In this document: piece after piece, positions 4,427-44,667 of the stretch
Numbering within the stretch: the first letter of the stretch is position 1
Layout of the letters: every line of letters starts with the position of its first letter
DNA from: an uncultured Planctomycetia bacterium
GTDB taxonomy: Bacteria > Omnitrophota > Gorgyraeia > 1-14-0-20-64-10
Reading direction: 5' to 3'
Assembly: GCA_964597545.1 (NCBI GenBank)
Contig: CAZQXN010000011.1
Span: 1 to 60,268, forward strand
DNA: 60,268 nt
The notes under the pieces: model-generated
The model's input: only the letters and a program-made list of their open reading frames with translations
What the model was told of the DNA's origin: nothing
Database searches by the model: none
Program-made: the position numbers and the translations under genes

Positions 4427-4498
4427 TGGGCCGACAAGGACTCGAACCTTGCTCAACGGATTAAAAGTCCGCTGCTCTGCCAGATGAGCTATCGGCCC
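4427..4498 (-). tRNA. tRNA-Lys (anticodon UUU)
   Basis: Reverse complement GGGCCGA-TA-GCTC-ATCTGGCA-GAGC-A-GCGGA-CTTTTAA-TCCGT-TGAG-CAAGG-TTCGAGT-CCTTG-TCGGCCC-A forms a canonical cloverleaf with anticodon TTT. CCA is not encoded. Confidence 0.9.
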
Positions 4499-24719: not shown

Positions 24720-25334
24720 TTACGCCTCCTCCGGCGGAATCAAAACACCGTGTGGAAGCCAGAAATCCCGCGTCACGTCATGCGCCCTTCCCTCGGCATC
24801 CTCGGCGGCAAGCCGCACTCGAAGGAACTTAGGTAACGCATCGTCCGGCTGCCATGTATCGAGATACAGCAGCTCGCCCGGTGCCTCGCCCTGATAGGCG
24901 TATGTCATAGAAAAACGGCTGACTCGACCTACCAGCCTTTGGGTCACCACCTCCTCCTCCTCTGTCTCAGGAAAAGCCAACCCTTCCCGAATGAGGACTG
25001 AATCTTCCCCCACACCCTGGAGCGCATAGCGCACCTGCCGCAGCCCAGTCGCCCCCTCGCTCTTTAAGAAAACCATCTGCCCGGCTTCGCCCACAAAGGG
25101 TGAATCGGCCAGGACGACGGCGTTGCGCAGCTCCTCTGCCATCCGGTTAAGTCCGCGCTCCACCACAAAAAAGATCTGGAGCCGCCCATCCGCCCGCTGC
25201 CAGGCAGTCAGCCCCCTCCCCAATACCAGCACCGCTGCAACGCCGATCACAACAGCCAGAGAGGTCGCGACAACCAATTCCAATAAGGTAAATCCCTTGC
25301 AGCCAGCTCCAAGGCGCCTCGGCCGCCGGGTCAT
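24720..25334 (-). CDS. Minor pseudopilin, GspJ-like (prepilin-type N-terminus)
   Basis: 204 aa. KGFTLLELVVATSLAVVIGV carries a prepilin cleavage/methylation motif. Confidence 0.65.
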   Translation of the reverse strand: MTRRPRRLGAGCKGFTLLELVVATSLAVVIGVAAVLVLGRGLTAWQRADGRLQIFFVVERGLNRMAEELRNAVVLADSPFVGEAGQMVFLKSEGATGLRQVRYALQGVGEDSVLIREGLAFPETEEEEVVTQRLVGRVSRFSMTYAYQGEAPGELLYLDTWQPDDALPKFLRVRLAAEDAEGRAHDVTRDFWLPHGVLIPPEEA

Positions 25335-25723
25335 TGCGTCCCCGCTTCCGGCGAAAGCCCCGTGGCAATCCGAACAGAACGTTCATGCCCCCGAAATCCC
25401 CAAAAAACCTGGGTGGTAATCTTTTGAAGGGTTTGCTCTGCCTCTATGGGCTCAGGCGCTGAAACCTCCCAGCGGAAGATCCCCTCTTGGCCTTCAGTTT
25501 CAACGGGGAGTTGCTGCGTATGGCGCGCGAGTGCCGCGATTGTCTCGCGATCTGCAAGGGCAGAGGCAGCTAAGGTATGGTCTAAGAGGCGTGTGACATT
25601 CAGATGGCGGCTGAAGACTGCAGCCCCTAGGATGAGGGCGGTTACGAGGATAGCGAATGCTACTAAAACTTCGATGAGGGTGAACCCGAGTGGGGCCCTG
25701 CGCCCCATCGGATTCAAAATCAT
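25331..25723 (-). CDS. Minor pseudopilin, GspI/GspH-like (prepilin-type N-terminus)
   Basis: 130 aa. LGFTLIEVLVAFAILV carries the prepilin motif. Confidence 0.65.
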   Translation of the reverse strand: MILNPMGRRAPLGFTLIEVLVAFAILVTALILGAAVFSRHLNVTRLLDHTLAASALADRETIAALARHTQQLPVETEGQEGIFRWEVSAPEPIEAEQTLQKITTQVFWGFRGHERSVRIATGLSPEAGTQ

Positions 25724-26169
25724 GGAGAGGCGCCCGAGCCCCCTTCCCAGTTGCCGATGTCGTCGCTGGTCCCCTCAGTACCATCGGGCCCAACCGAGAA
25801 GAGGTCGTAATCGCTTGGGTTCTGCGTTCCCGGAGTTTGATAATGATAAGGACGCTTCCAGGGATCTAGGGGGGTACTTTTAAGGTACGGACCCCGCCAG
25901 TTTTCTACATCCGCCGGGAGGGCTCGCAGGGCCTCCAACCCCTGCTCTTGGGTGGGGTAAGCGCCGGTATCTACCTCAAAGAGATCCAGCGCCAAGGGGA
26001 TATTGGCCTGCACATCTGCCGTGGCCCGAGCAATCCGAGCCTGCTGAGTCCGCCCGGCAAGCCGAGGGACCACCATCGCCACTAAGACGCCCAGGATGGT
26101 GACCACGATCAGAAGTTCTACCAGGGTAAATCCTCTTTCGTCATTGCGAGCGAAGCACAGCCATCCCAT
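25720..26169 (-). CDS. gspG: Major pseudopilin GspG
   Basis: 149 aa. ERGFTLVELLIVVTILGVLVAMVVPRLAG, then DLFEVDTGAYPTQEQGLEAL and GPYL...DPWKRPYHY, typical of GspG. Confidence 0.85.
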   Translation of the reverse strand: MGWLCFARNDERGFTLVELLIVVTILGVLVAMVVPRLAGRTQQARIARATADVQANIPLALDLFEVDTGAYPTQEQGLEALRALPADVENWRGPYLKSTPLDPWKRPYHYQTPGTQNPSDYDLFSVGPDGTEGTSDDIGNWEGGSGASP

Positions 26170-26177
26170 TCTGCGTA

Positions 26178-27389
26178 TTATCCTACATTAAAATTTAGTT
26201 GAAAGATAGGCAGTAGCATCGAGAAGACAATGCCGCCCACCACCAGGCCTACCAGCAGGATCATCACCGGTTCAATCAAGCTACTCATGGTTTTGACTGA
26301 TCGATCCACTCCCTGGTGGTACCGCTCTCCTGCTTGGGCAAAGGCCCGGGCCAAATCCCCCTGGGCCTCTCCCATGGCGACCATGGTCAGCAAGAAAGCC
26401 TCTCCAACTCCGCCTCGCCTTAAGCTCGCTGAGAGGGCCATCCCCTCCATCACATCCCGCTCACTGCGCTTCATCTGTGCCCTGAGCCGGCTTAAACCGA
26501 CTGTGGCGCCACTCAAGCGAAGGGCCTCCGGAAGGGGCAGCCCATGGGCCAGCAAAAGCCCGAGTGTCGAGGTGAGCCGAGCCATCTCCCCCTGTTCTGC
26601 CAAGCGGCCAAAGAGAGGAATATGGCGCAAGAGGTTCATTCCCCAGGCCCCAATCGGAATCTTCAGCCAGCCGGATCTTACTGCCAACCATCCGGCAATC
26701 AGCAGCAGCAATCCCAGGCCCGCCGCCCACACCAACCCCTGGCCGGATTGAATCATCATATTCGTCATCCAGGGCAAGGGCTGGCCGGTCTCTTCAAAGA
26801 GAAGCCCAAGCTTGGGTACAACAAACCAAATGAGCGCACTGACGGTAGCCAGCCCCACCAACATGACAAAGGCCGGATAAACCAAAGCCCCGCGCACTTT
26901 GGAGACAAGCTCGGACTCAGCCTCTACCTGCCGGGTCAGGGCCTCTAAGACCTGCTCCAACGCCCCGCCGGCCTCTCCGGCCTGAATCAAGGCCACAGCG
27001 ACTGGCGGGAAGGAAGCGCTTACCTGCGTCATCCGCATGGCATCTGCCAGATTGGCCCCACCGGTAACTTGGGCCTCCAGAAAGGCGGCCACCCGCCCCA
27101 CAGGACGTCCGGATTCCTGCTCTGCCAACAGGTGCAGTGCCTGGGTCAGGCTTAAACCGGCCTGCAAACCCTGACCAATGGTGCGGGCCCACAAGGCAAG
27201 ATCGGCTTGGCCGAGCGCTCGACGCCCAAGTGCCCCGGCGGGTGCCCCCTTTTGCTCCAAGGGAACAACCTCCAAGGGAAACAAACCCATTTGCTTAAGG
27301 TGCTGAACAGCAGCAGTCCGATCCATCGCCTCCACAACCCCTGAGGCGTCGGTTCGCTTATCCTGCTTGGCTCGGTAGGTAAATTGCAT
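26178..27389 (-). CDS. gspF: T2SS inner-membrane platform protein GspF
   Basis: 403 aa. Duplicated T2SSF-type domains and three TM segments. Sits between gspE and gspG. Confidence 0.88.
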   Translation of the reverse strand: MQFTYRAKQDKRTDASGVVEAMDRTAAVQHLKQMGLFPLEVVPLEQKGAPAGALGRRALGQADLALWARTIGQGLQAGLSLTQALHLLAEQESGRPVGRVAAFLEAQVTGGANLADAMRMTQVSASFPPVAVALIQAGEAGGALEQVLEALTRQVEAESELVSKVRGALVYPAFVMLVGLATVSALIWFVVPKLGLLFEETGQPLPWMTNMMIQSGQGLVWAAGLGLLLLIAGWLAVRSGWLKIPIGAWGMNLLRHIPLFGRLAEQGEMARLTSTLGLLLAHGLPLPEALRLSGATVGLSRLRAQMKRSERDVMEGMALSASLRRGGVGEAFLLTMVAMGEAQGDLARAFAQAGERYHQGVDRSVKTMSSLIEPVMILLVGLVVGGIVFSMLLPIFQLNFNVG

Positions 27390-27392
27390 ACG

Positions 27393-27429
27393 GGGTCAGA
27401 CCCCTTTGGGTCAAAAGGGGTCTGACCCC
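27393..27429. repeat. Two copies of the GGGGTCWGACCCC palindrome (gspE-gspF intergenic)
   Basis: ggggtcagacccc (27393-27405) and ggggtctgacccc (27417-27429). Confidence 0.9.
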
Positions 27430-27438
27430 TTTGAGGGG

Positions 27439-29076
27439 TTATTCATTTTCAAGCTCCGTGACGCGAAGGACCTCTTCCTCGGTGGTAAGACCCATCTCGA
27501 CCTTTTTCATGCCGTCTTCCCGGAGGGTCCTCATCCCCTTGGACCGGGCAAGCTTGACAATCTCCCCTGCAGGCGCCCGATCGGTAATGAGCTTTCGGAT
27601 GTCATCGTCCAAAATAAGGAACTCTGAGATCGCGGTCCGCCCTTTGTAGCCGGTCTTGCGGCACTCTTGACATCCCTTGCCCCGGCATGCTGTACAGGTG
27701 AGCCGAACCAACCGCTGGGCAATGGCGCACTCCAGGGAGGAGGCCACCAGGTAGGGCTCAATCCCCATGTCCAACAAGCGCGTCATGCAGCCGGCTGCAT
27801 CGTTGGTGTGCAGGGTTGAGAAAACCAGGTGACCGGTCAGTGCCGTACGGATCGCAGTCTCAGCGGTCTCAAAATCCCGAACCTCACCCACCATAATGAC
27901 GTCGGGATCATGCCGGAGAATGGATCTGAGCGCCGAGGCAAAGGTAAAGCCGATCTTGGGGTGCACCTGCATTTGCGTGATGCCGGAGATCAAATATTCA
28001 ATGGGGTCTTCAATGGTGATCATCTTGCGCTTGCGGTCGTTGATGTGGGAAAGGCACGCATACAGAGTGGTGGTCTTGCCGGATCCGGTAGGCCCGCTCA
28101 CAAAGATGATGCCATGGGGCTTGGTGACCAAACGCTCCAAGATCTTGCGGTGGTCTTCAAACAACCCCAACTGCTCTAACCCCAAGAAGATGTTGGTGCT
28201 TAAGATCCGGATCATCGCCGCTTCGCCAAAGGGAGTAGGTAAAACCGAGATTCTTAAATCCAGCTCGCGGCCCGCCACCTTGACCTTGGCTCGACCATCC
28301 TGGGGCAGCCGGTGCTCAGCCACATTGAGCCGCGCCATCACCTTGATCCTGGAAACAATCCCCGGATGAAACCGCCTGATGCCGTCGGGAACCGGGATAT
28401 CGTACATCACCCCGTCGATCCGAACGCGAATCATCAGGGTCTTCTCATAGGGCTCCAAGTGAATGTCGGTGGCGCTGTCCCGAATGGCCTCTAAAAAGAG
28501 CTGGTTGACAAACTTGATGGTGGAGGCCTCTCCCCCGATCTTGTCCAGATCAGAGACCGCCTCCGAGAGGGTTGTGGCGGTGGCAGAGAGTTCCTCTGTC
28601 GCCACCATTGCTTCAACCGTCTCGGCCCCGACACCGTAATGCTGACGAATGGCCTCTGAGAGCTCGTGAGAGCTCACTGCCGCCGGCTGGATCTCGGCAT
28701 GGGTCAACATGCGAAGCTCATCCACCACACTGGTATTTAAGGGGTCCTCCATGGCAACGATCAGGGTTTTGCCTTGGCGGGCCACCGGAAGGACATGGTA
28801 GCGAGTGACAATCCGGGCTGGAACCTGCTTAATGAGCTCTGGATCAACGGGGCGCTGCTTGAGGGAGACAAAGGAGATGTTGAGCTGTTCGGCTAAAACC
28901 GGCAAGAGTTTCTCTTCCGAAGCCACCCCCATTCGGGCCAAGGTTTGGCAGATGGGGGGCACACCCTTGTTCTTCTTCTGGCGCTCCAGGGCATCCTCCA
29001 GCTGCTTCTCGGTGATCACCCCGGCCTCGATCAAGAGCTTGCCGATCTTCTTGTTGTGCCGCTTTAAAACCATCAT
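27439..29076 (-). CDS. gspE: T2SS/T4P assembly ATPase GspE
   Basis: 545 aa. N-terminal T2SSE_N-type domain, Walker [14 protein letters not shown], Asp and His boxes, and a tetracysteine motif CTACRGKGCQECRKTGYKGR. Confidence 0.92.
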   Translation of the reverse strand: MMVLKRHNKKIGKLLIEAGVITEKQLEDALERQKKNKGVPPICQTLARMGVASEEKLLPVLAEQLNISFVSLKQRPVDPELIKQVPARIVTRYHVLPVARQGKTLIVAMEDPLNTSVVDELRMLTHAEIQPAAVSSHELSEAIRQHYGVGAETVEAMVATEELSATATTLSEAVSDLDKIGGEASTIKFVNQLFLEAIRDSATDIHLEPYEKTLMIRVRIDGVMYDIPVPDGIRRFHPGIVSRIKVMARLNVAEHRLPQDGRAKVKVAGRELDLRISVLPTPFGEAAMIRILSTNIFLGLEQLGLFEDHRKILERLVTKPHGIIFVSGPTGSGKTTTLYACLSHINDRKRKMITIEDPIEYLISGITQMQVHPKIGFTFASALRSILRHDPDVIMVGEVRDFETAETAIRTALTGHLVFSTLHTNDAAGCMTRLLDMGIEPYLVASSLECAIAQRLVRLTCTACRGKGCQECRKTGYKGRTAISEFLILDDDIRKLITDRAPAGEIVKLARSKGMRTLREDGMKKVEMGLTTEEEVLRVTELENE

Positions 29077-33735: not shown

Positions 33736-36700
33736 TCATCGCCACGCCCGGATCTTGAAGCGCCGCTTGGGGGAGCGGTTCCCCTTGGAGTCAACGGCTT
33801 CGAGAAAACCGCTGTAGACGCCCCGCTTTGGATACCGGTGCCAGGTCCCGTGCTGGGCAGTGCTTCGGCTTGTACCGTCTCCGAAGTCAATGTGATATCG
33901 GACAGAATCGCCATCCGGATCGATCGCCCGGAATCGAAAGAGCGCCCAGCGGCCAAAGCTGCGCACCCGGAAATGTTTGATCTCCGGAGGTCGATTTAGG
34001 GTAGGGCGGCGGAAGACGGTTACACGCGCTTTTTGTGAAGCGGAATACTCACCATCGCTCACTGAAAAAGTTACGGTGTGCTCCCCAATATCTCCTCTTC
34101 CGGGTTTGAGAATCACCAAAGCACGCCCTTCCCCAAAATCACGCAAGCGCATGAAACGGGGTAGATCTACTGCCGAGAAGGTCAGGGGGTCGCCATCCGG
34201 GTCGGAGGCCGAGATCACCTGGAAGTAGACCTGCCCTACCTGAATCTCTCGATTTGCAATGGGATTTAAGACCGGGGGGCGGTTAACAGGGTTGGTAACG
34301 GTAATGGCGAGCTTCTTTCGGTCGGCCAGACCGGCATCATCGAAGGCGTAGAAGAGAACTGTGTATTCTCCGGCCTGTCCAGGGTCTGGGGTCCAGGAGA
34401 AGCGTCCGGTTGGGCGATCAAAAGAAGCGCCCTCCGGAAGATCTCCTGCCCACAGATAGACGGGGTCTCCATCCGGGTCGGTGGCGGTGACGGTAAACTC
34501 CAGGGGTTCTCCCTCTTTGACCTCCTTGTCGCCGATGGGGTCTAAGACCGGGGGGCGGTTGACGTTCACCACGGTGATGTTGATGGTTTCTGAGTCGGAG
34601 AGGGGAGGAGTGATGCCACGAGGTGGCATGATGATGTCGTCGGGGGTACGGGGTGGAACAAGACCCGGGTTCGGCAGAGGCATGGGGTCCGGCACAGGGA
34701 TGGGGATTAAGTTAATTTCGGTGGCGGTAAATGTGACTCTGTAGAGGCCAGCTTGTGTGAAGTCGGGGGTCCAGGAGAAGAGGCCGGTTCTGGAAAAGGT
34801 GGCTCCGGCAGGAAGACCTTTTGCCCCCAGGAAGATGAGGCTGTCTGGATCGCTGGCTGTAACAGTGAAAGAGAGACGCTCTCCCTCCTTGACCTCCTTG
34901 TCGCCGATGGGATCTAAGACCGGGGGGCGGTTGACGTTATGGACGGTGATGTTGATGGTTTCTGAGGTGGAGAGGGGAGGGGTGATATCGCGAGGGGGCG
35001 CGTCGATTACCTCAGGGATGTCAGCCAGAATGGTGCCAGGACTCGGCAGAGGAGGAAAGGGATCCGGTACAGGGAGAAAAATCAGGCCGAGCTCGTTGGC
35101 AGTAAAGGTGACTTCGTAGGCGTCGGCCTGGGAGAAGTCCGGGGTCCAGTAGAAGCGGCCGCGGACGCCCATATATCCTTTATGCACGTCATAGACAGGA
35201 GTCCAATCGAAGGTAGCTCCTTCAGGAAGCTCCATGTTAATAAATTCGAGAAGGTCTCCATCCGGGTCGGTGGCGGTGACGGTAAACTCCAGGGGTTCTC
35301 CCTCCTTGACCTCCTTGTCGCCGATGGGATCTAAGACCGGGGGGCGGTTGACGTTATGGACGGTGATGTTGATGGTTTCTGAGGTGGAGAGGGGAGGGGT
35401 GATATCGTGAGAGGGAATGATGATGGATTCCCGCTCAAGGGGAAGCGGACCCGGCAAGGGGAATTCGGGGTCGATGGGATCAATGGGGAACAGGCCAAAT
35501 TCGGTGGCGTGGAAGGTGACTTTGTAGGCGTCGGCTTGGGTGAAGTCCGGGGTCCAGGAGAAGCGTCCGGTGGGGCGATCGAAAGAAGCGCCCTCCGGAA
35601 GATTTCCTGCCCGAAAGAAGATGGGGTCTTGATCCGGATCGGTGGCGGTGACGGTGAATTCCAGGGGCTCTCCTTCTTTAACCTCCTTGTCGCCGATGGG
35701 GTCTAAGACCGGGGGGCGGTTGACGTTATGGACGGTGATGGTGATGGTTTCTGAGTCGGGGAGGGGAAGAATGATAATGATAGGTTCCCGCTCGGGGGGA
35801 ATCGGACCCGGCAAGGGGAATTCGGGGTCGATGGGATCGATCGGGCTAAGATCGCTGGCGAAGAAGGTGACTTCGTAGGCGTCGGCTTGGGTGAAGTCGG
35901 GGGTCCAAGAGAAGAGGCCGGTTGGACGATCGAAAGAAGCGCCCTCCGGAAGATCTCCTATCCACAGATAGATGGGGTCTTGATCCGGATCACTGGCGGT
36001 GACGGTAAACTCCAGGGGTTCGCCCTCTTTGATCTCCTTGTCGCCGATGGGGTCAAGGATGGGGCGGCGGTTGACGTTGTGGACGGTGATGTTGATGGTT
36101 TCTGAGTTGACCAACTCGCCATCTGTTACTTCAAAATGGACACCATCGTAAAACCCTGATTGTTCATAGGTCGGTATCCAAGTGAAAGCGCGCGTATTCG
36201 GATCGAAATTGGCCCCTTCAGGCAGATTGCCGGCCGAGAAAATCAATTCATCCCCGTCAAGGTCTATAGCAGTCACCGTGAAAGCAAGGCTCTCTCCCTC
36301 GGGGACCGTCTTGTCGCCAATTGGACCCAACACCGGCCGTCTATTGGCAGGAACAGAGGGCGGAGCAAAAGCGTAGAAACCGGTCCGCTGGGGATCGTGG
36401 CGGAACATCGGCCACTCCATGCTGTCTTCTCTGTAGCTCTTTGGAAATTCCAGGACGCTGACATGTGTCACTCCCCATTCAGCGTTAAAGTGAGAGGTAT
36501 ATCGGAGGGTGACAAGATCCACCAACCCGTTGCCATCCAAGTCGGTAATGACCGTCTGACCTCCTTCGGGACCAACGATCTCCCTGGGTAACTTGATTGG
36601 GAATCCTTCTACAAGCGTTCCATCATGATGCCAGGCCTGCAGAAACGCCATGCCTCTATCCTCGGGGGGGATGTAGCTCTGGTTAGGCGCCGAAGACCCC

Positions 36701-39700
36701 AAGATCACTTCTTGATCTCCATCCGCATCTATATCTCCAACGACTACGCTGGTCTTCCCCGAACTGGGGAGCCGGATTAAACCGTGATAAGGGACAGGCC
36801 ATCCCGAAACAGGCGTTCCATCGTGATGCCAAGCGCCAACCGTTCCCGGTGAGTCCGGGAATTGGTCAAGGGTTGCTGCGAGGACTTCCAAGTCCCCGTC
36901 TCCGTCCAGATCAGCCGGCACAACCGCCTGGCCGATGAAGGCAGCTTTCTGCCCAGCAGGAGGAGGGATAAAGGTCATCTCCGAACCATTTTCCCGATAG
37001 AGATGGATTCCGGGCCCGGTGGAACGGCCGCCGGTCGTCATGATCTCTGAACGACCGTCGCCGTCTACATCTGCCATTGCCATCGGGGCTCCCCGGGAAA
37101 TATAGGAAACCTCAACAGGCCAACCGCTGTGAACCGACCCATCCGGCTCGAGGACAGTGATTCTCGAGTCGTTGCCCCCAAGCTCACTGAGGAACGCGAC
37201 CTCACCCAATCCATCTTTGTCGATGTCTCCCACCGCCGGATGGGAAGAGTAATAATCTAAATGATCGTCCAACACCGGCCAGCCGGGAAGCGGATCCCCT
37301 TGCCAGTCGTAGGCGCCGGCGAACTCCTGACTGGTCACCACAATTTCCAGCTGGCCATCCTGGTCGAGATCAGACAGGGAGGCGAAGGCCAGCCCCATCT
37401 CTGGATGAGCTATTGGAAAACCGGGCAGGAGAGTCCCATTGAGACGATAAGCATAGACCTTCGATTTCCCATAGCTGTCGGGGCCCGTGACAATGATCTC
37501 TTTGAGGCCGTCCTGATCAATGTCTCCCGCTGCCGCTGAGTTGAGTCCATTTCCTGAGGAGGGGGTTGGATTCACAGGCCAGCCAGGTAACATTTGTCCG
37601 GTCGAATCGAGGACAGCAAGCTTTCCGGGGTTCTCCCCGGGAAAGCTTACTCCGATCAAAACAATCTCTTTCGTTCCATTATTATCCAAGTCGTCGACAA
37701 GCTGCGGACGGAGAGCATTGACCCCCTCAATCCGTGACACCCACTTCAGGTATCGGGTGACGACGAGAAGCTCAAAGGAATGGTTCAGGGTGTACCCCGC
37801 GTTCGTCTCAACGTTCAGATTAAAGGGGATGGAGTCGACGCTGTCAGGGATATCCTCCAAGACCTGGATAGAAAAGGGATTCTCCTCGTTCGTTGTCGCA
37901 TCCGACCAACCCAAATCCCCTAGAGAAGAAAAGCTCTCCTTAAGGATAACGTAGGGACTGGAACTGGTCAGGGTTGCTTTGATGCCCTGAGCGGGGATGC
38001 CGCGGTTGGCCAAAGAAAAATGGACTGCCACCGTCGCCCCTGCCTGAAGAGGGTTATCCGGTTCAATCTGAGTGACTCTTAGAACAGGATGGGGCGTTGC
38101 GGTCAACGCCTGGTAGGCATTCACCCTGCCGCCTCCCAAAAAGCCCTCGAAGCCGGGGTTGGTTTCATCGATGTTATCCGCCGTGGAGGCAAGCGTCCCG
38201 GCAATCTTCCCATTCGAAGCGGTTGAATCGTTGCCAATCAGAAGAGCGGCCAAGCCGGCCAGGTGGGGACAGGCCATGGAGGTACCGTTAAGCAGCCGAT
38301 ACCCCGAGGGGTCCCCCAAACCGCCCGAAGGGGGAACGGTTGAAAGGATGCCAACACCAGGAGCAGCCACATCGACCCACGACCCATAGCTGGAGAAGGA
38401 GGCCTTTTGATCTTGAGAATCGGTAGCGGCAACCGACATCATTCTCTGATAACCGGCTGGATAATGGACGCTGGAAGAATTGGAATTCCCCGCGGAGGCA
38501 ACCAGGAAGACTCCTTGGGCGTAAGCGTCTGCGATGGCTCCATTGAGTGTTTCGGAAAAACCGCCACCGCCCCAACTGTTGGAGATGACATCTGCCCCCT
38601 GATCAACCGCATAACGGATCGAGGCAACCGCTCCTGCCAACCCACCATATCCCGTCGAGCTTAAGAACTTTACCGCCATGATCTTGCAATCCCAAGCCGC
38701 TCCTGCGACGCCTGTGCTGTTGTTGGTCGCTGCCGCCGCGATACCGGCGCAGTGGGTGCCGTGGCCGTAATCATCAAACGGATCTCCATCGTAGTTGTAA
38801 AAATCATAGCCATAGACATCGTCCACATAGCCGTTGCCGTCGTCGTCGATGCCGTTACCGGGGGTTTCACCGGAATTGGCCCACATATTGGCAGCCAGAT
38901 CCTCATGACCGTAATGCACACCTGTATCCACGATGGCAATCACCACATCGCTGGAGCCGGTGGTGATGTCCCAGGCTCGTTCTGCTTGAACTTTCGTGTG
39001 CGCCCATTGTTCACGGTAACGGGCGTCGTTGGGTACGAGAAAAGCACGAATGACGTGGTCGGGCTCCGCATATTCTACTGCAGCGCTCGCTTCGTAAGCT
39101 GCCACTACGGAAGGAACGCCGTCCGAAGCATCGAATTCAAGTAGATACGTCTGATCCAAGGCAACAGGAGCGACGCCCCCCGGTGCGCGTTGCTGGCGGC
39201 GTTCCAGGCGGGCAATCAGCTCCTCTTGGGCTTGGATCTGTTGATCTATTTTGACTCTTTCCGCTTCGATTTTGGCCTGGTACTCCCGGTGCTCTTTGGA
39301 ATCTTTGTCCTTCCACCAATACCAGCGGGAATGGGTCGTTGAACCCAGTCGGGCGCGCTTCTGTTTGAGGGCTTCCAAACGCTCTTGGGGGGTGAGATGT
39401 TTGGGGAAAAGATCCTGAACCGAGGTGACGCCGAAACGCTGGTTGAGGGGTTCGAGGTCTGCCAGGGCAGCACCCGTCTTGAGCTTGACGATGATCCGGC
39501 CGGGGGTGTAGTCCGGCTCGGCTTCCTGGGTTGGGTCCGCAGGGTGATCCGCATCCAAGTGGTAAGGGGGGCTCTCCGCGGGAATCTGAGTTGACTCTGG
39601 TTCATCTAAGACCACGCCGGAAGCGGGAATCTGGGCCATCAGAAAGGCAAGGATAAAGGCGGAAAAGATGCCGAGTGGACCAATTCTAAGCATTTTTTTC

Positions 39701-39702
39701 AT
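33736..39702 (-). CDS. 1988-aa secreted multidomain subtilisin (S8): propeptide, S8 catalytic domain, FG-GAP/VCBS repeats, seven Ig-like (He_PIG / cadherin-like) repeats with Pro-rich linkers, and a conserved C-terminal module
   Basis: Signal peptide MKKMLRIGPLGIFSAFILAFLMAQIPASG. Triad contexts AIVDTGVHYGHEDL, GHGTHCAGIAAA and GTSMACPHLAGLAALL. FG-GAP-type motifs GDIDQDGLKEI, SDLDQDGQLEI, GDIDKDGLGEV and ADVDGDGRSEI. Seven repeats of NRPPVLDPIGDKEVKEGEPLEFTVTATDPDGD...FSWTPDFTQA..Y.VTF. Confidence 0.88.
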   Translation of the reverse strand: MKKMLRIGPLGIFSAFILAFLMAQIPASGVVLDEPESTQIPAESPPYHLDADHPADPTQEAEPDYTPGRIIVKLKTGAALADLEPLNQRFGVTSVQDLFPKHLTPQERLEALKQKRARLGSTTHSRWYWWKDKDSKEHREYQAKIEAERVKIDQQIQAQEELIARLERRQQRAPGGVAPVALDQTYLLEFDASDGVPSVVAAYEASAAVEYAEPDHVIRAFLVPNDARYREQWAHTKVQAERAWDITTGSSDVVIAIVDTGVHYGHEDLAANMWANSGETPGNGIDDDGNGYVDDVYGYDFYNYDGDPFDDYGHGTHCAGIAAAATNNSTGVAGAAWDCKIMAVKFLSSTGYGGLAGAVASIRYAVDQGADVISNSWGGGGFSETLNGAIADAYAQGVFLVASAGNSNSSSVHYPAGYQRMMSVAATDSQDQKASFSSYGSWVDVAAPGVGILSTVPPSGGLGDPSGYRLLNGTSMACPHLAGLAALLIGNDSTASNGKIAGTLASTADNIDETNPGFEGFLGGGRVNAYQALTATPHPVLRVTQIEPDNPLQAGATVAVHFSLANRGIPAQGIKATLTSSSPYVILKESFSSLGDLGWSDATTNEENPFSIQVLEDIPDSVDSIPFNLNVETNAGYTLNHSFELLVVTRYLKWVSRIEGVNALRPQLVDDLDNNGTKEIVLIGVSFPGENPGKLAVLDSTGQMLPGWPVNPTPSSGNGLNSAAAGDIDQDGLKEIIVTGPDSYGKSKVYAYRLNGTLLPGFPIAHPEMGLAFASLSDLDQDGQLEIVVTSQEFAGAYDWQGDPLPGWPVLDDHLDYYSSHPAVGDIDKDGLGEVAFLSELGGNDSRITVLEPDGSVHSGWPVEVSYISRGAPMAMADVDGDGRSEIMTTGGRSTGPGIHLYRENGSEMTFIPPPAGQKAAFIGQAVVPADLDGDGDLEVLAATLDQFPDSPGTVGAWHHDGTPVSGWPVPYHGLIRLPSSGKTSVVVGDIDADGDQEVILGSSAPNQSYIPPEDRGMAFLQAWHHDGTLVEGFPIKLPREIVGPEGGQTVITDLDGNGLVDLVTLRYTSHFNAEWGVTHVSVLEFPKSYREDSMEWPMFRHDPQRTGFYAFAPPSVPANRRPVLGPIGDKTVPEGESLAFTVTAIDLDGDELIFSAGNLPEGANFDPNTRAFTWIPTYEQSGFYDGVHFEVTDGELVNSETINITVHNVNRRPILDPIGDKEIKEGEPLEFTVTASDPDQDPIYLWIGDLPEGASFDRPTGLFSWTPDFTQADAYEVTFFASDLSPIDPIDPEFPLPGPIPPEREPIIIILPLPDSETITITVHNVNRPPVLDPIGDKEVKEGEPLEFTVTATDPDQDPIFFRAGNLPEGASFDRPTGRFSWTPDFTQADAYKVTFHATEFGLFPIDPIDPEFPLPGPLPLERESIIIPSHDITPPLSTSETINITVHNVNRPPVLDPIGDKEVKEGEPLEFTVTATDPDGDLLEFINMELPEGATFDWTPVYDVHKGYMGVRGRFYWTPDFSQADAYEVTFTANELGLIFLPVPDPFPPLPSPGTILADIPEVIDAPPRDITPPLSTSETINITVHNVNRPPVLDPIGDKEVKEGERLSFTVTASDPDSLIFLGAKGLPAGATFSRTGLFSWTPDFTQAGLYRVTFTATEINLIPIPVPDPMPLPNPGLVPPRTPDDIIMPPRGITPPLSDSETINITVVNVNRPPVLDPIGDKEVKEGEPLEFTVTATDPDGDPVYLWAGDLPEGASFDRPTGRFSWTPDPGQAGEYTVLFYAFDDAGLADRKKLAITVTNPVNRPPVLNPIANREIQVGQVYFQVISASDPDGDPLTFSAVDLPRFMRLRDFGEGRALVILKPGRGDIGEHTVTFSVSDGEYSASQKARVTVFRRPTLNRPPEIKHFRVRSFGRWALFRFRAIDPDGDSVRYHIDFGDGTSRSTAQHGTWHRYPKRGVYSGFLEAVDSKGNRSPKRRFKIRAWR
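34881..34990. repeat. 110-nt perfect direct repeat, copy 1 (inside the Ig-like array)
   Basis: ctccctccttgacctccttgtcgccgatgggatctaagaccggggggcggttgacgttatggacggtgatgttgatggtttctgaggtggagaggggaggggtgatatcg is identical to 35298-35407. Confidence 0.9.
35298..35407. repeat. 110-nt perfect direct repeat, copy 2
   Basis: Identical to 34881-34990, offset by 417 nt (in frame). Confidence 0.9.
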
Positions 39703-39750
39703 CTAAGCGTAACCCCCTGCTACACTCTGTCAATCGCTCAAAGATCTGGT

Positions 39751-39788
39751 GAAATAAAAAATGCCCGGCTGCCCTTTGGCAGCCCGGC
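39751..39788 (-). terminator. Intrinsic terminator inside the 5' leader of the 1988-aa S8 gene; its 5' arm overlaps the aptamer 3' strand
   Basis: Reverse strand GCCGGGCUGCC-AAAG-GGCAGCCGGGC (one internal mismatch or bulge) followed by AUUUUUUAUUUC. Confidence 0.75.
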
Positions 39789-39860
39789 GGTCTCTAAGAT
39801 CACTGGATCCGTGGCGTTGCGTCCCGCCCTTGCAGGCGGTTTGCCTTTATCGGGGTACCG
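39778..39860 (-). promoter_or_regulatory. c-di-GMP-I (GEMM-I) riboswitch aptamer, leader of the 1988-aa S8 gene
   Basis: Reverse strand AUAAAGGCAAACC-GCCU-GCAA-GGGC-GGGACGCAACGCC-ACGGAUCC...GCCGGGCUGCC. The GGCAAACC / GNRA-capped hairpin / GGGACGCAA-GCC core matches the Vc2-type consensus almost position for position. Confidence 0.8.
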
Positions 39861-39874
39861 AATCTCTTATTATA

Positions 39875-39903
39875 AGAATACACGGTACGCTCAAGCATGT
39901 CAA
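39875..39903 (-). promoter_or_regulatory. Sigma70-type promoter of the 1988-aa S8 gene
   Basis: Reverse strand TTGACA (39903-39898), 17 nt, TATTCT (39880-39875). Confidence 0.6.
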
Positions 39904-39991: not shown

Positions 39992-40672
39992 TCAGAGGGA
40001 ACCGAGGAACTTGTAGCCGACGTTTCGGACGGTATCGATGAGGGCGGTGTGCTGCGGGCCCAGCTTTAAGCGCAGGCGGCGGATGTGGACGTCCACGGTC
40101 CGGGTACCGCCAATGAAATCATAGCCCCAAACCTGGTTTAAGAGTTGATCCCGGCTGAAAACTCGGTTGGGATGGGTAGCTAGAAACTTAAAGAGCTCAA
40201 ACTCCTTGTAGGTCAGCTCCAGGGGTTTTCCGTCTAAGAGCACCTCATATTGATCGGCATTGAGCTCCAGGGTGCCGAATCGCACACCGGCTCCGGGAGA
40301 GAGGTGGTTGAGGCGCTTTAAGAGGAACTTCAGCCGCGCTTCAATGACCCCAGCATCAGCCGGGAGAACCAAGAAATCCTCAAGCCCAACAACCGTCTCG
40401 AGCTCATGAAGCTGCCCTGCTTCAATCAGGACCATGAGAGGAAGGTCCTTTACCGTTTCTTGATCGCGGATCTCAGCCACCATGGTCGAGAGGCGTCCTG
40501 CCCCGCTCGCATCCAGGACTCCTAAGACAAAACGGGATTTTGAGCTTTCCAGGCGGTCCAAATCCGTAAGCTCACAAGCGGTCACATTGAAACCCCGCTT
40601 GACCAACTGGCCCTTTAAGCGTTTGAGTGGCGCCGCTTCGGATCCAACCAAAAGGAGTGATTCCATGGGCAA
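39992..40672 (-). CDS. OmpR/PhoB-family winged-helix regulator with a degenerate (pseudo-)receiver domain
   Basis: 226 aa. The C-terminal LTYKEFELFKFLATHPNRVFSRDQLLNQVWGYDFIGGTRTVDVHIRRLRLKL is a canonical OmpR-type wHTH. The receiver has LLLVGSEAAP in place of the acidic DD/DE pocket and LVLP where the conserved Lys-Pro is expected. An Asp is retained in VLGVLDASG. No cognate kinase is present in the window. Confidence 0.8.
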   Translation of the reverse strand: MPMESLLLVGSEAAPLKRLKGQLVKRGFNVTACELTDLDRLESSKSRFVLGVLDASGAGRLSTMVAEIRDQETVKDLPLMVLIEAGQLHELETVVGLEDFLVLPADAGVIEARLKFLLKRLNHLSPGAGVRFGTLELNADQYEVLLDGKPLELTYKEFELFKFLATHPNRVFSRDQLLNQVWGYDFIGGTRTVDVHIRRLRLKLGPQHTALIDTVRNVGYKFLGSL

Positions 40673-40674
40673 CC

Positions 40675-42414
40675 CTACCGACCTTCTCGGTATCGATTGG
40701 TGATGGGCATGCGCCGGTCCCGCCCAAATGCTACAGGGGTAATCTTAATCCCTGGTGAGGCTTGCCGCCTCTTGTATTCATTGAAATCGATCATCCCGAC
40801 CACCTGAGCCACTACCTTGGGTGGAACCTTGAGTTTGCGTCGGATCTCGGCAGGGGAGGCATGTTCCTCTACATAGGCCCGCATGATGGCATCCAACTGG
40901 CGGTAGGGCGGCAGGGTATCCTGATCCTTCTGGTTGGGGCGCAACTCTGCTGTAGGAGGGCGCCTCAAAACTGAAGCTGGAATCACCTGCTTGCCAAAAT
41001 ACCGGTTGGCGGTGCGAGACAGCTGCACCACCCACCCCTTAGGTAGATCCTTCATAACCGCAAACCCGCCCACCATGTCGCCGTACAAAGTGCAGTACCC
41101 GGTGGAAAGCTCCGACTTATTGCCGGTGGCAAGCACCAACCACCCAAACTTGTTGGAGAGGGCCATCAGCAGCGTGCCGCGAATTCTCGCCTGGAGATTC
41201 TCCTCGGTGGCATCCGCCCGCGCTCTGCCAAAGACTGGACGAAGCGTACCGAGGAAGGTCTGGAAGACCCGCTCAATGGGAAGCTCCATAAAGTGCACCC
41301 CCAAGGCGCGGGCCACTCGGCGGGCATCGGCCTGGGTTCCTTGAGAGGAATAGTGCGACGGCATGGAAACGCAGTTCACCGCGCGGGGTCCCAGGGCTGC
41401 CACCGCCAGGGCAGCGGTTAAACTCGAGTCAATTCCTCCGGAGAGCCCCACCACCACCTGTTTAAAGTTATTCTTGGTCACATAGTCTTTGAGCCCCAAG
41501 AGTAACGCCTGAAAGATCTCCTGATGGGACTTAAGCAGCTTGGCAGAGGGTGTGGACGCCCAGTGTCCGGAGGCAAACTTCTGGCGCACTGGAACCGTTG
41601 GGATCCCATTCTCCCGCTGGGCGGGGCCTTGCGGAGAAAGGGGAATTTCGACGAAGTTAACCCCTTCCTTGAATTGACTTGCCCGGAAATGAATGCGCCC
41701 AGAGGGGCGGACAACGAGTGAGGCACCGTCAAAGACCAGCTCATCCTGCCCCCCTGCCAAGTTGACATAGGCAATCCAGCTCTTAAGGGCCTTGGCGCGA
41801 CGGCTAAGGAGCTGTTCACGCTCTCGGTGCTTACCGGCATGATAGGGAGAGGCAGAGAGATTCAAAATCAGGTCTGCTCCAGCCTTCGCCTCCATGCGAC
41901 AGGGCCCTTCGCGCTCCCAGATGTCCTCGCAGATGGAGATTCCCACGCGCAGGATCATGGGGTCTGACCCCTTTTTACCCGGGGTCTGACCCCATTGGGT
42001 AATAAGTTCCAGTAGAAGCGGTTTCTCGCCGGGGGCAAAATGCCGCTTCTCATCAAAAACCCCGTAGTTAGGAAGCAGCATCTTGCGGTAGCGACCCACC
42101 ATGCGGCCATGGCTTATAACGGCTGCAGCGTTGTAGAGCTTGCCGGAGGAACCCTGATCCACGAAGCCCATGACAGCGGTTAAGCCCTGGGTGTGCAGCA
42201 GGAGGGATTCAAGTGTTTTTAAGTTTTCCCGGATGAAGCTGGGCTTAAAAAGGAGGTCCTCCGGAGGATAGCCGGTAATCACCAGCTCCGGGAAGAGTAC
42301 CAAATGGGCTCCGCGCTTCTTGGCCAGGCGCAGCGCATCCGCAATCTTGGTGCGATTACCCGCGAAATCACCGACCGTTGCATTGAGCTGAGCTAAAGCT
42401 AAACGCAATTTCAT
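40675..42414 (-). CDS. nadE: Glutamine-dependent NAD+ synthetase
   Basis: 579 aa. N-terminal CN-hydrolase domain (LVLFPELVITGYPPEDL, ISICEDIW) and a C-terminal NAD synthase domain with the P-loop GLSGGIDSS. Confidence 0.92.
   Translation of the reverse strand: MKLRLALAQLNATVGDFAGNRTKIADALRLAKKRGAHLVLFPELVITGYPPEDLLFKPSFIRENLKTLESLLLHTQGLTAVMGFVDQGSSGKLYNAAAVISHGRMVGRYRKMLLPNYGVFDEKRHFAPGEKPLLLELITQWGQTPGKKGSDPMILRVGISICEDIWEREGPCRMEAKAGADLILNLSASPYHAGKHREREQLLSRRAKALKSWIAYVNLAGGQDELVFDGASLVVRPSGRIHFRASQFKEGVNFVEIPLSPQGPAQRENGIPTVPVRQKFASGHWASTPSAKLLKSHQEIFQALLLGLKDYVTKNNFKQVVVGLSGGIDSSLTAALAVAALGPRAVNCVSMPSHYSSQGTQADARRVARALGVHFMELPIERVFQTFLGTLRPVFGRARADATEENLQARIRGTLLMALSNKFGWLVLATGNKSELSTGYCTLYGDMVGGFAVMKDLPKGWVVQLSRTANRYFGKQVIPASVLRRPPTAELRPNQKDQDTLPPYRQLDAIMRAYVEEHASPAEIRRKLKVPPKVVAQVVGMIDFNEYKRRQASPGIKITPVAFGRDRRMPITNRYREGR
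41959..41993. repeat. Two GGGGTCTGACCCC palindromes inside the nadE coding sequence (in frame)
   Basis: Copies at 41959-41971 and 41981-41993. On the coding strand they translate as ...QWGQTPGKKGSDPM..., immediately before ILRVGISICEDIW. Confidence 0.9.
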
Positions 42415-43214
42415 AACGCCACCACTACAAAACCTTTTTGGTCTGCCTGCTGGATGAACTGGGGACGCTCAAAGAGAAGTGTGCGCCCCGCCTCGATCCC
42501 AAGGCAGCGCATTTGAGCAGCCTCCATAACCTCCAAGGTAGCCTGCCCTACCACCGGAATATCAAAGCGCATATCATGGCGGCGGCCGCACGCTTTAACC
42601 ACCATGCAGCCCGGTCCGGCAATCTCCCCTGCCCGGCGAATCATGGCGTCGGTCCCCTCGATCCCCTCCACGGCCACCACAGCTTTGGCTTTAAGGGCGA
42701 TCGCCTGCCCTATTCCTAATTGGTCCAGCTGGCGGGCCAGTTTCAAACCATGCGCAAGATCCGCAGACTCGGTATCGTTGGGCTTGCGCTGGGTCAGCAC
42801 CCCTTTGTTGGGAATCCAATCTTTAAGGAAGGTTCCGGATTCCAGCACCCGGAATCCCTGCGATTCCAGGTAACGAACTGCCATCTTCATGGCAGAAGAT
42901 CCGGAGCGGTCCGGGGCAAATTTCAGGAGGGTCTTGACCACCCCATTAAAGTTCTTCTCATCCTTGAAGAGGCGCTCGGGTTTGATCTGGCCGGCCAGAA
43001 CCACTTCTTTAACGCCGTCGGCTTTCAAGAGCTCAGGCACACGGGAGATTTCCTTGAAATCGACCCAATGCATCCGGTCCACCTCCCCCTCCAGGACAGC
43101 GTCAGTCTCTTCACGCAACCCCGCTGCAATCACCTCGAAGCCTAGCCCCCTGGCAGCGCGGGCAACGTAAATCGGAAAGGTTCGGTTTCCGGCAATCAAT
43201 CCCAGTTTTTTCAT
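42411..43214 (-). CDS. lpxI: UDP-2,3-diacylglucosamine pyrophosphatase LpxI (DUF1009 family)
   Basis: Start taken at MKKLGLIAGNRTFPIYVARAA (43214). The 39 upstream codons of the long ORF are just a translation of the palindromic repeats. The family call rests on the N-terminal LGLIAG pattern, the length and the lipid A context. Confidence 0.7.
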   Translation of the reverse strand: MKKLGLIAGNRTFPIYVARAARGLGFEVIAAGLREETDAVLEGEVDRMHWVDFKEISRVPELLKADGVKEVVLAGQIKPERLFKDEKNFNGVVKTLLKFAPDRSGSSAMKMAVRYLESQGFRVLESGTFLKDWIPNKGVLTQRKPNDTESADLAHGLKLARQLDQLGIGQAIALKAKAVVAVEGIEGTDAMIRRAGEIAGPGCMVVKACGRRHDMRFDIPVVGQATLEVMEAAQMRCLGIEAGRTLLFERPQFIQQADQKGFVVVAL

Positions 43215-43238
43215 CGCAATGTGCTCATGAAATGACAA

Positions 43239-43300
43239 GGGGTCAGACCCCATCCCATGGTGCTTGGGGGTCTGACCCCTATGCAGCGGGGTCTCACCCC
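43239..43300. repeat. Three copies of the GGGGTCWGACCCC palindrome (lpxC/fabZ-lpxI intergenic)
   Basis: ggggtcagacccc (43239-43251), ggggtctgacccc (43267-43279) and the variant ggggtctcacccc (43288-43300), which abuts the lpxC-fabZ stop. Confidence 0.9.
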
Positions 43301-44667
43301 TACAACGCTTCTTCTCCCTCCAGGAGAGCAAACATCATCTCGGCCTCTGCCACCACCTGCCCTTCGACAAGCGCGCGGGTCTGCATCTTCCCGGTCTTGG
43401 AGCGCAGCTTCAGGACATTGGTCTCAAGGACCAAGGTGTCCCCTGGCAGCACGGTGCGGCGGAACTTCACATTGTCCATGCCGACGAAATAGGCGTACTT
43501 GCCCAAATTCTCGGTTTTGTTCAGCATCAAAAGACCGGAAAGCTGAGCCAGCGCTTCAATGATCAGCACGCCAGGCATAACCGGGCGCTTGGGGAAGTGC
43601 CCGGAGAAATACTGTTCGTTGATGGTGACGTTCTTGATGCCGACCGCCCGTTTGTCCGGAATAAGTTCAACCACCCGGTCCACCAGCAAAAAGGGATAGC
43701 GGTGAGGCAATATCTTTTCGATCGTCTGGATCTCCAGAGCGGTCGCCTCCGGCTCCACGTAGGTGGCCCGGATACCACTCTCCTGCGCTCGATCCAAGGC
43801 CTGCCTGAGTCGTTGGAGGAGGCGCAGATTCAACAGGTGGCCTGACCGAATGGCTACTACATGCCCCTGCAGAGGGCGCCCCAACAGGTACAGATCACCG
43901 ATCAAGTCCACGACCTTGTGCCGAACATACTCATCCGGGAAGCGCAAGCGGTTCTTGATGACCCGTCCGCTGTTGTCTACAACCACCGTATTCTCATAGG
44001 TCGCACCCTTGCCCAAGCCAATCTTGCGCAGGGCTTCAACTTCCTGTGCGAGGCAGAAAGTGCGCGAAGGGGCCAACTCCTTTTCGAAAGTGCCGGGGGT
44101 GATCTCGTCGGCAAAGAATTGGGCGCCCAATCCCGGGATCGGATAGCTCAGAAGATACGACACGCGCAAGGTGTCGGACGGAAAGATGGCCACAATGGAC
44201 TCGCCCTCCTCCACCCAGATCGGCTCCCGAACCGCAATGGGGCGGCGGACCAGCTCCTGCTTGCGAATGCCGGCCTGCCTTAACACCTCCACAAAGGGAT
44301 GGGAAGAGCCGTCGAGCCCCGGTATCTCTTCACCGCTCAATTCCACCAAGAGATTGTCGATCCCAACGCCAAAGCAGCTGGCCATCAGGTGCTCGATGGT
44401 ATGCACCTCGACGACTCCGTTGCCCACAGAGGTGCGACGAGCCCGGCGCATGGGATCCAAAATGGTGGAGATCGAAGCGGTGATCGGTTTGGAGCCGGCC
44501 AAATCTGTTCGAAGGAAGGTGATGCCGCTTCCGGGAGGTGCCGGCTTGAATTTGGCTCGAACCAATTGTCCGGTATGGAGCCCCACCCCTTCGATTCGAA
44601 CCGGCCGGTCGATGGTCTGCTGCGGAATAAAGGGCTGCGTCTTATTGGGAGATTTTGCTGTAGACAT
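43300..44667 (-). CDS. lpxC-fabZ: Bifunctional UDP-3-O-acyl-GlcNAc deacetylase / 3-hydroxyacyl-ACP dehydratase (LpxC-FabZ fusion)
   Basis: 455 aa. The N-terminal half is LpxC-like (RIEGVGLHTGQLV, HTIEHLMA). The C-terminal half is FabZ-like (ILPHRYPFLLVDRV, FSGHFPKRPVMPGVLIIEALAQ). Confidence 0.92.
   Translation of the reverse strand: MSTAKSPNKTQPFIPQQTIDRPVRIEGVGLHTGQLVRAKFKPAPPGSGITFLRTDLAGSKPITASISTILDPMRRARRTSVGNGVVEVHTIEHLMASCFGVGIDNLLVELSGEEIPGLDGSSHPFVEVLRQAGIRKQELVRRPIAVREPIWVEEGESIVAIFPSDTLRVSYLLSYPIPGLGAQFFADEITPGTFEKELAPSRTFCLAQEVEALRKIGLGKGATYENTVVVDNSGRVIKNRLRFPDEYVRHKVVDLIGDLYLLGRPLQGHVVAIRSGHLLNLRLLQRLRQALDRAQESGIRATYVEPEATALEIQTIEKILPHRYPFLLVDRVVELIPDKRAVGIKNVTINEQYFSGHFPKRPVMPGVLIIEALAQLSGLLMLNKTENLGKYAYFVGMDNVKFRRTVLPGDTLVLETNVLKLRSKTGKMQTRALVEGQVVAEAEMMFALLEGEEAL

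Follow-up and report, generated by a model that had tools for sequence, protein, structure and literature searches.

A canonical class I c-di-GMP riboswitch (GEMM-I) coupled to a minimal, pbuE-style transcriptional ON platform is the probable control element of a 1988-aa gene on the minus strand of the window, that is, of the whole 60,268-nt stretch of DNA analysed here. The 3′ strand of its aptamer is at the same time the 5′ arm of a terminator, and the ON direction is a well supported prediction of this arrangement, with c-di-GMP as the predicted ligand. The element would tie a 6-kb secreted subtilase/adhesin gene of a poorly studied, uncultivated lineage, probably of the Omnitrophota, to c-di-GMP signalling. 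Each of its elements has a precedent, from aptamer class and pocket to the terminator-based ON logic and the kind of target gene, and we regard it as a further example of a known design.

Aptamer fold, binding pocket and family

Read on the minus strand, the leader contains a predicted sigma-70-like promoter at 39875..39903 (TTGACA-17-TATTCT; -35 at 39903-39898, -10 at 39880-39875), followed in that order by AAAGGCAAACC, a GCAA-capped hairpin and GGGACGCAACGCCACGG. The promoter string given by the first-pass annotation is indeed found at 39903-39875 of the minus strand with 10/12 consensus matches, its aptamer core strings lie where it had placed them, and the open reading frame of the 1988-aa gene that it named as the target is present at 39702-33736. 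As a scan of 6.7 kb should yield about 3 such sites by chance alone, the promoter candidate takes its weight from its position, with 21 nt between the end of the -10 and the aptamer, rather than from the consensus match. Transcription is predicted to start near 39868, about 14 nt upstream of the aptamer.

The aptamer itself (39774..39854, minus strand) matches an Rfam covariance model over its full length (model positions 1-80) with 59.2 bits and an E value of 1.9e-11 computed for the whole window. Its core consists of AAAGGCAAACC, the GCAA-capped hairpin, GGGACGCAACGCC and ACGG, and the corresponding core pattern matched the two riboswitches of the window and none of 100 shuffles. The P1/P2/P3 junction is present, with a fold that is weaker than in typical members. 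P2 (39844-39819) has 8 pairs and is capped by the GNRA tetraloop GCAA at 39833-39830. P3 pairs 39815-39806 with 39792-39782 through 8 standard and 2 non-standard pairs, the latter being C39816.U39781 at the base and A39808.C39790 in the upper stem. P1 is minimal, with two or three pairs: G39851-C39778, a C.A mismatch, C39854-G39774 and possibly C39855-G39773. One pairing proposed earlier is wrong according to the Rfam structural alignment, where the partner of GCCGGGCUGCC is not GGCAAACC but GCC-A-CGG, with which it forms P3. Within GCCGGGCUGCC, C39779 is the unpaired, ligand-contacting equivalent of C92, and only C39778 belongs to P1, with G39851 as its partner.

In the Vc2 aptamer, G20, A47 and C92 contact the ligand, and the interhelical Watson-Crick pair C44-G83 is universally conserved (PMC4744006). 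Using a mapping of model columns to Vc2 numbering made in this analysis, we find G at 39845, A at 39818 and C at 39779 (all minus strand) as the equivalents of the three ligand contacts. The interhelical pair is C39821-G39788, at model columns 34 and 66. The element hence shares with Vc2 of Vibrio cholerae, which is of the RF01051 type, the three-helix architecture, the GNRA-capped P2, the G20/A47/C92 pocket and the interhelical C-G pair. It differs from Vc2 and RF01051 in its minimal P1 and in its short P3, which is devoid of the 11-nt tetraloop-receptor motif, and from most members in the C.U mismatch at the base of P3 (GCAACGCC), found in a minority of natural members. The GEMM-I identity assigned at first pass is therefore supported both by the match to clan CL00126 and by the conserved pocket nucleotides, the identity of the ligand and its affinity being predictions.

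The best-scoring Rfam family at this locus is nevertheless not RF01051 but RF03167 (c-di-GMP-I-GGC), whose gathering score of 59 is just passed with 59.2 bits. The Rfam comparison reports the best clan member per locus; two lower-scoring clan matches at the two loci of the window also reach their own gathering scores, and very probably these belong to RF01051 (gathering score 35). The consensus cores of both families differ at a single place, GACGC-A-AAgCc in RF01051 and GACGC-G-AAgCc in RF03167 (column 37, equivalent to Vc2 A47). In this variant-defining column both copies of the window carry A and not the G of RF03167. Reportedly, in the naming of Weinberg 2017, 'GGC' stands for positions 20, 47 and 92. 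We then searched species-representative genomes with a core-scaffold pattern that allowed A or G at position 47. The scaffold was found in at least 120 genome stretches from many phyla, with A at position 47 in 124/124 matches. Among 17 relatives with the canonical pocket that were run against Rfam, 13 were labelled RF03167 (62-80 bits), and the RF01051 label was given only to those carrying the CUAAGG...CUAUG receptor in P3 (58-86 bits). The label thus tracks a short, plain P3 and not the pocket, which makes it an artefact of clan competition: RF03167 outscores RF01051 here because P3 is short and plain and has no 11-nt tetraloop-receptor motif.

If the label were taken at face value, the element would belong to the c-di-GMP-I-GGC class and sense a ligand other than c-di-GMP. 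RF03167 is the top-scoring family for both copies (59.2 and 67.7 bits), P3 is similarly short, and P1 is 3 bp. However, the only discriminating core column is A in both copies, the same label falls on 13/17 relatives with the canonical A, and G was found at position 47 in 0/124 scaffold matches even though the pattern permitted it. We rejected the GGC-variant reading on account of the A at the defining column, and consider it very improbable. Judged by its pocket nucleotides, the element belongs to the canonical c-di-GMP-I aptamers, whatever its RF03167 label suggests. The labelling has a wider bearing, as clan competition tags many canonical A47 aptamers as 'GGC' (13/17; loci L003-L122) and could mislead ligand assignment.

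A further candidate ligand is 3′,3′-c-AMP-GMP, as in GEMM-Ib riboswitches, which have the same fold, are also terminator-based and also control extracellular proteins (PMC7266159, PMC9481103). An A at Vc2 position 20 marks the c-AMP-GMP variants (PMC9481103; G20A: PMC7288161), whereas this specificity position is G39845 in our element, so that a GEMM-Ib type switch is extremely improbable and c-di-GMP is kept as the predicted ligand.

Some caution on the aptamer is warranted by its score and its energetics. Its 59.2 bits are at the low end of the family (canonical relatives, 58-86 bits), and its fold, at -17.7 kcal/mol, is not the minimum free energy (MFE) structure: even before the terminator 3′ arm exists, a competing MFE structure of -28.2 kcal/mol, which contains GGAUC-CAGU-GAUCU, is available. 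The aptamer could have decayed and be non-functional, leaving the hairpin as a constitutive attenuator or terminator that perhaps also ends read-through from the upstream response-regulator gene. A score lying on the gathering threshold, the two P3 mismatches, the weak P1, an aptamer fold that lies 10 kcal/mol above the MFE while the terminator has yet to be transcribed, and a closest relative that has no orthologous leader all speak for such decay. On the other hand, all ligand-contact and tertiary-contact nucleotides and the GNRA loop are intact. The odd features recur in other natural aptamers, GCAACGCC with its C.U mismatch at the P3 base in L041, L125, L142, L174, L182, L189, L220 and L223, and CCGCCGGG in L031, L045, L074 and L078. 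Furthermore, a constitutive terminator placed 60 nt before it would leave a 6-kb gene silent in spite of its own promoter, and the platform is a design seen 85 times elsewhere. We hence judge decay unlikely and retain the reading of a functional c-di-GMP-I aptamer.

A strand shared by aptamer and terminator

The shared strand GCCGGGCUGCC (39778..39788, minus strand) is the 3′ strand of the aptamer and the 5′ arm of the terminator. It is followed by the loop AAAG (39777-39774), which is also the 3′ strand of P1, by the terminator 3′ arm GGCAGCCGGGC (39773-39763), identified by repeat search and folding, and, directly 3′ of the hairpin, by the U-tract AUUUUUUAUUUC (39751..39762). The hairpin at 39788-39763 has a folding energy of -21.5 kcal/mol and the structure (((.(((((((....))))))).))), and runs into AUUUUUUAUUU; its arms are 11 nt long with 10/11 positions paired (91% complementary) and one G.G mismatch. 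This agrees in full with the hairpin GCCGGGCUGCC-AAAG-GGCAGCCGGGC followed by AUUUUUUAUUU that had been read from the sequence at the outset. The shared strand supplies the aptamer with the G83 equivalent G39788, the 3′ strand of P3, C92 and the first nucleotide of P1. In the terminator fold the C92 equivalent pairs with G39772, and nucleotides 39774-39772 have a double use as well, serving both P1 and the terminator loop and 3′ arm. As 11 nucleotides of the aptamer, the C92 and G83 equivalents among them, are the terminator 5′ arm, the bound aptamer and the hairpin cannot coexist, and the mutual exclusivity suggested by the first-pass annotation stands.

At -36.6 kcal/mol, P2 together with the terminator exceeds the aptamer fold (-17.7 kcal/mol) in stability by about 19 kcal/mol, and in the MFE structure of the full leader (-52.4 kcal/mol, z=-4.2) the terminator forms and P3 does not. 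Termination is therefore the expected default state. Since only an aptamer locked by its ligand would prevent it, we predict a kinetically controlled ON switch. In the sequence of events that we propose, transcription would probably start near 39868 from the TTGACA/TATTCT promoter, and the terminator 3′ arm would begin to emerge just 1 to 2 nt after completion of the aptamer (39854-39774). In the absence of ligand, GGCAGCCGGGC would capture GCCGGGCUGCC, depriving the aptamer of P1, of the interhelical G, of C92 and of the 3′ strand of P3, and RNA polymerase would be halted by the hairpin with its U-tract. Binding of c-di-GMP would instead lock the shared strand in the aptamer, the hairpin could not nucleate, and the polymerase would read through into the 1988-aa secreted subtilase/adhesin gene. 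The 4-nt terminator loop is among the shortest of the compact platforms described below (5/85), and with so extremely short a decision window the switch may need high c-di-GMP or a pause.

The element could also work in the opposite direction (OFF), or c-di-GMP could act through translation or RNA stability rather than termination. An aptamer does not by itself reveal the direction, Vc1 and Vc2 work with no obvious terminator (PMC4744006), and the adjacent second copy appears to be OFF. But the 11 shared nucleotides bar the coexistence of bound aptamer and hairpin, an alternative antiterminator is neither needed nor apparent, and the SD-like AGGGGG, some 45 nt downstream of the terminator, does not pair with the aptamer in the MFE structure. 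These alternatives are therefore very improbable, and the terminator-based ON switch is the reading that we carry forward.

In the pbuE adenine riboswitch the 3′ strands of the aptamer are the 5′ arm of the terminator, the bound aptamer acts as the antiterminator, and control is kinetic. Our element resembles this ON platform in that its aptamer 3′ strand doubles as the terminator 5′ arm, and differs in aptamer class and ligand. Within the c-di-GMP-I class, the closest precedent for the predicted behaviour is Bc2 of Bacillus thuringiensis, a validated terminator-based ON switch located before a collagen adhesion protein gene (PMC4933901). In Bc2 the terminator forms without ligand and c-di-GMP leads to read-through, following a repression/de-repression model (PMC4933901). 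Like Bc2, the window element is predicted to be terminator-based and ON, and it precedes the gene of a large surface/adhesion protein. It differs from Bc2 in phylum and in target gene, and its platform is minimal, the terminator 5′ arm being the aptamer 3′ strand and the 4-nt loop being the 3′ strand of P1.

In the full-leader MFE structure the terminator is lengthened into a long imperfect hairpin (39740-39810, minus strand), in which the U-tract and flanks pair with the region of the P3 loop, through GGAUC/GAUCU, GUGA/UCAC and UAGAGA paired with the U-tract; this extension is weak, as a repeat search recovers no more than the 11-nt arms. The local hairpin GGAUC-CAGU-GAUCU competes with P3.

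Recurrence of the compact platform

No orthologous leader was found, the best protein homologs of the 1988-aa gene being at most 42% identical, and the contigs of homologs P0001 and P0003 showed no synteny with the window. As no orthologous leader was at hand, we tested the recurrence of the design itself with a DNA pattern. The pattern consisted of the aptamer P3, CCGGGYUGCC, a loop of 3-10 nt and a roughly complementary GGYARNCNGG, and did not require a U-tract. It recovered 102 metagenome stretches and 2 genome loci which, together with the window, amount to 93 distinct sequences. A U-tract, defined as at least 5 U in the 8 nt right after the hairpin, was present in 85/93 (91%), against a background of 6% at random positions of the same contigs and of 10% after other matches to the 3′-arm motif. 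Clear cases of the same design in genomes include L072 (Omnitrophica), L049 (Planctomycetales), and L105 and L015 (Brevibacillus). Among compact platforms the hairpin of the window is slightly weaker than the median (-21.5 vs -23.6 kcal/mol).

We then compared aptamer column 72 (Y) with its partner in the terminator (R). The pairs observed were C:G in 57 sequences, U:A in 29, U.G in 4 and C.A in 3, a covariation with a Fisher p value of 1.6e-16 in a test that ignores phylogeny, the sequences coming from many distinct groups. The 85 compact-platform sequences and the covariation between aptamer and terminator reinforce the predicted ON direction. They also indicate that the minimal platform is a recurrent, selected design among environmental GEMM-I riboswitches.

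The genes downstream of compact-platform switches are diverse, and an S8 giant gene follows only the copy of the window. About 25 of these switches precede a conserved protein of about 106 aa (MQTTIYYSEEDAYLMEQVDAKGRRERRSRSAVLLSILEEYFEREKRLGEILVDLG...), at loci that include L131:684-1001(-), L143, L146, L152, L186, L188, L190, L195, L219, L138, L145 and L206. This protein has no match in Pfam; its N-terminus looks ribbon-helix-helix-like, and its RLGEILVDLG resembles the N-terminal motif of MshEN/GspE. Another small protein that recurs (SLVxMLQSGxYxEWLGC; for example L162, L198 and L124) has no Pfam match either. As in the window, class I c-di-GMP riboswitches occur in twos or threes, a few kb apart at most, on several contigs, namely L174 (271-327 and 1593-1648, minus strand), L024, L010, L113 and L009. 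A different coupling of aptamer and terminator is seen in the Omnitrophota MAG locus L003 (6302-6440, plus strand), where the aptamer 3′ strand is duplicated downstream (ACCGCCGGGCUACC), and this duplicate is the terminator 5′ arm, pairing with GGCCCGGC and followed by AUUUUG.

Predicted target gene, second riboswitch and genomic context

The 1988-aa gene (33736..39702, minus strand; SD-like AGGGGG at 39718-39713) encodes a protein with a signal peptide, a fervidolysin-like prodomain, an S8 subtilase domain, FG-GAP repeats, He_PIG/Big_9/cadherin-like Ig repeats and PKD. This is typical extracellular/adhesion cargo of c-di-GMP regulons, and the position of the element in the 5′ leader of an extracellular or surface-protein gene is shared with the c-di-GMP-I class. 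In the literature we found nothing relevant linking GEMM elements to subtilases or to Omnitrophota. Just upstream of the leader lies the gene of a 226-aa regulator (39992-40672, minus strand), whose only match is to the OmpR-type DNA-binding domain (Trans_reg_C, residues 148-222), while residues 1-147 gave no receiver domain at E<=0.001.

A second class I c-di-GMP aptamer (copy 2; 33644-33570, minus strand; 67.7 bits, top label RF03167, A at position 47) sits 6 kb downstream of copy 1, before a paralogous 1423-aa gene (33470-29199, minus strand) encoding S8, FG-GAP, PKD and dockerin domains. Copy 2 has a similarly placed promoter-like site, TTGACT-18-CATACT (33695-33666, minus strand), and a 17-bp terminator found by folding (33556-33517, minus strand). 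Its aptamer and this separate terminator coexist in the MFE structure. Before the terminator 3′ arm is made, however, a core strand of the aptamer pairs in the MFE structure with the 5′ arm and loop of the terminator, the key antiterminator pairing being that of CCGCAAAGCCA with UGGUUUUGCGG. The duplex 33613-33593/33556-33535 has an energy of -28.8 kcal/mol, compared with -20.2 +/- 2.4 kcal/mol for shuffles, only 3/2000 of which were as good. Copy 2 is thus predicted from folding to be of the classical antiterminator OFF design.

With copy 1 predicted ON and copy 2 OFF, the paralogous genes may respond oppositely to c-di-GMP. We tentatively propose a reciprocal toggle, a possible but doubtful arrangement in which high c-di-GMP would turn the 1988-aa gene ON and its 1423-aa paralog OFF, the whole being a lineage-specific cassette, probably in an Omnitrophota genome, that swaps secreted protease/adhesin isoforms next to a GspE with an MshEN c-di-GMP receptor domain. 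In such a toggle the aptamer of copy 1 would itself be the antiterminator, whereas the bound aptamer of copy 2 would free its separate terminator, at which polymerases heading for the type II secretion genes further downstream may stop as well. The adjacent pair of predicted ON and OFF switches before paralogs offers testable opposite outputs of one second messenger and, together with the secretion module linked to MshEN and the misleading Rfam label, is among the most useful by-products of this analysis.

The type II secretion module (24720-29076, minus strand) lies directly downstream of both giant genes and comprises GspE with an MshEN domain match (27439-29076), GspF (26178-27389) and GspG (25720-26169), all on the minus strand, as well as pseudopilins. 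The N-terminus of GspE, KIGKLLIEAGVITEKQLEDALERQ, is similar to the MshEN motif that binds c-di-GMP, except that R is replaced by K. A GspE bearing MshEN means that c-di-GMP may act on expression and on secretion both.

All named top matches of the NadE protein encoded in the window belong to Candidatus Omnitrophota, so that the contig is probably from this phylum. The closest relative, L225 (1-2601; JGI 3300009105 contig Ga0117905_1038777), shows 86% NadE identity and 85% nucleotide identity over 42207-39985 of the window. The synteny of NadE and the response regulator is kept in L225, and all similarity stops just past the stop codon of the response-regulator gene. No GEMM element was found on the L225 contig, and the riboswitch and S8 genes are absent at this site. 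Such a loss of similarity indicates that the promoter, the riboswitch and the S8 genes are lineage-specific here, and the promoter-riboswitch-S8 block is possibly an acquired cassette. Upstream of NadE the window encodes LpxI and an LpxC-FabZ(FabA-like) fusion (42411-44667, minus strand), which point to a diderm lipid A pathway, and a tRNA gene is located at 4427-4498 (minus strand).
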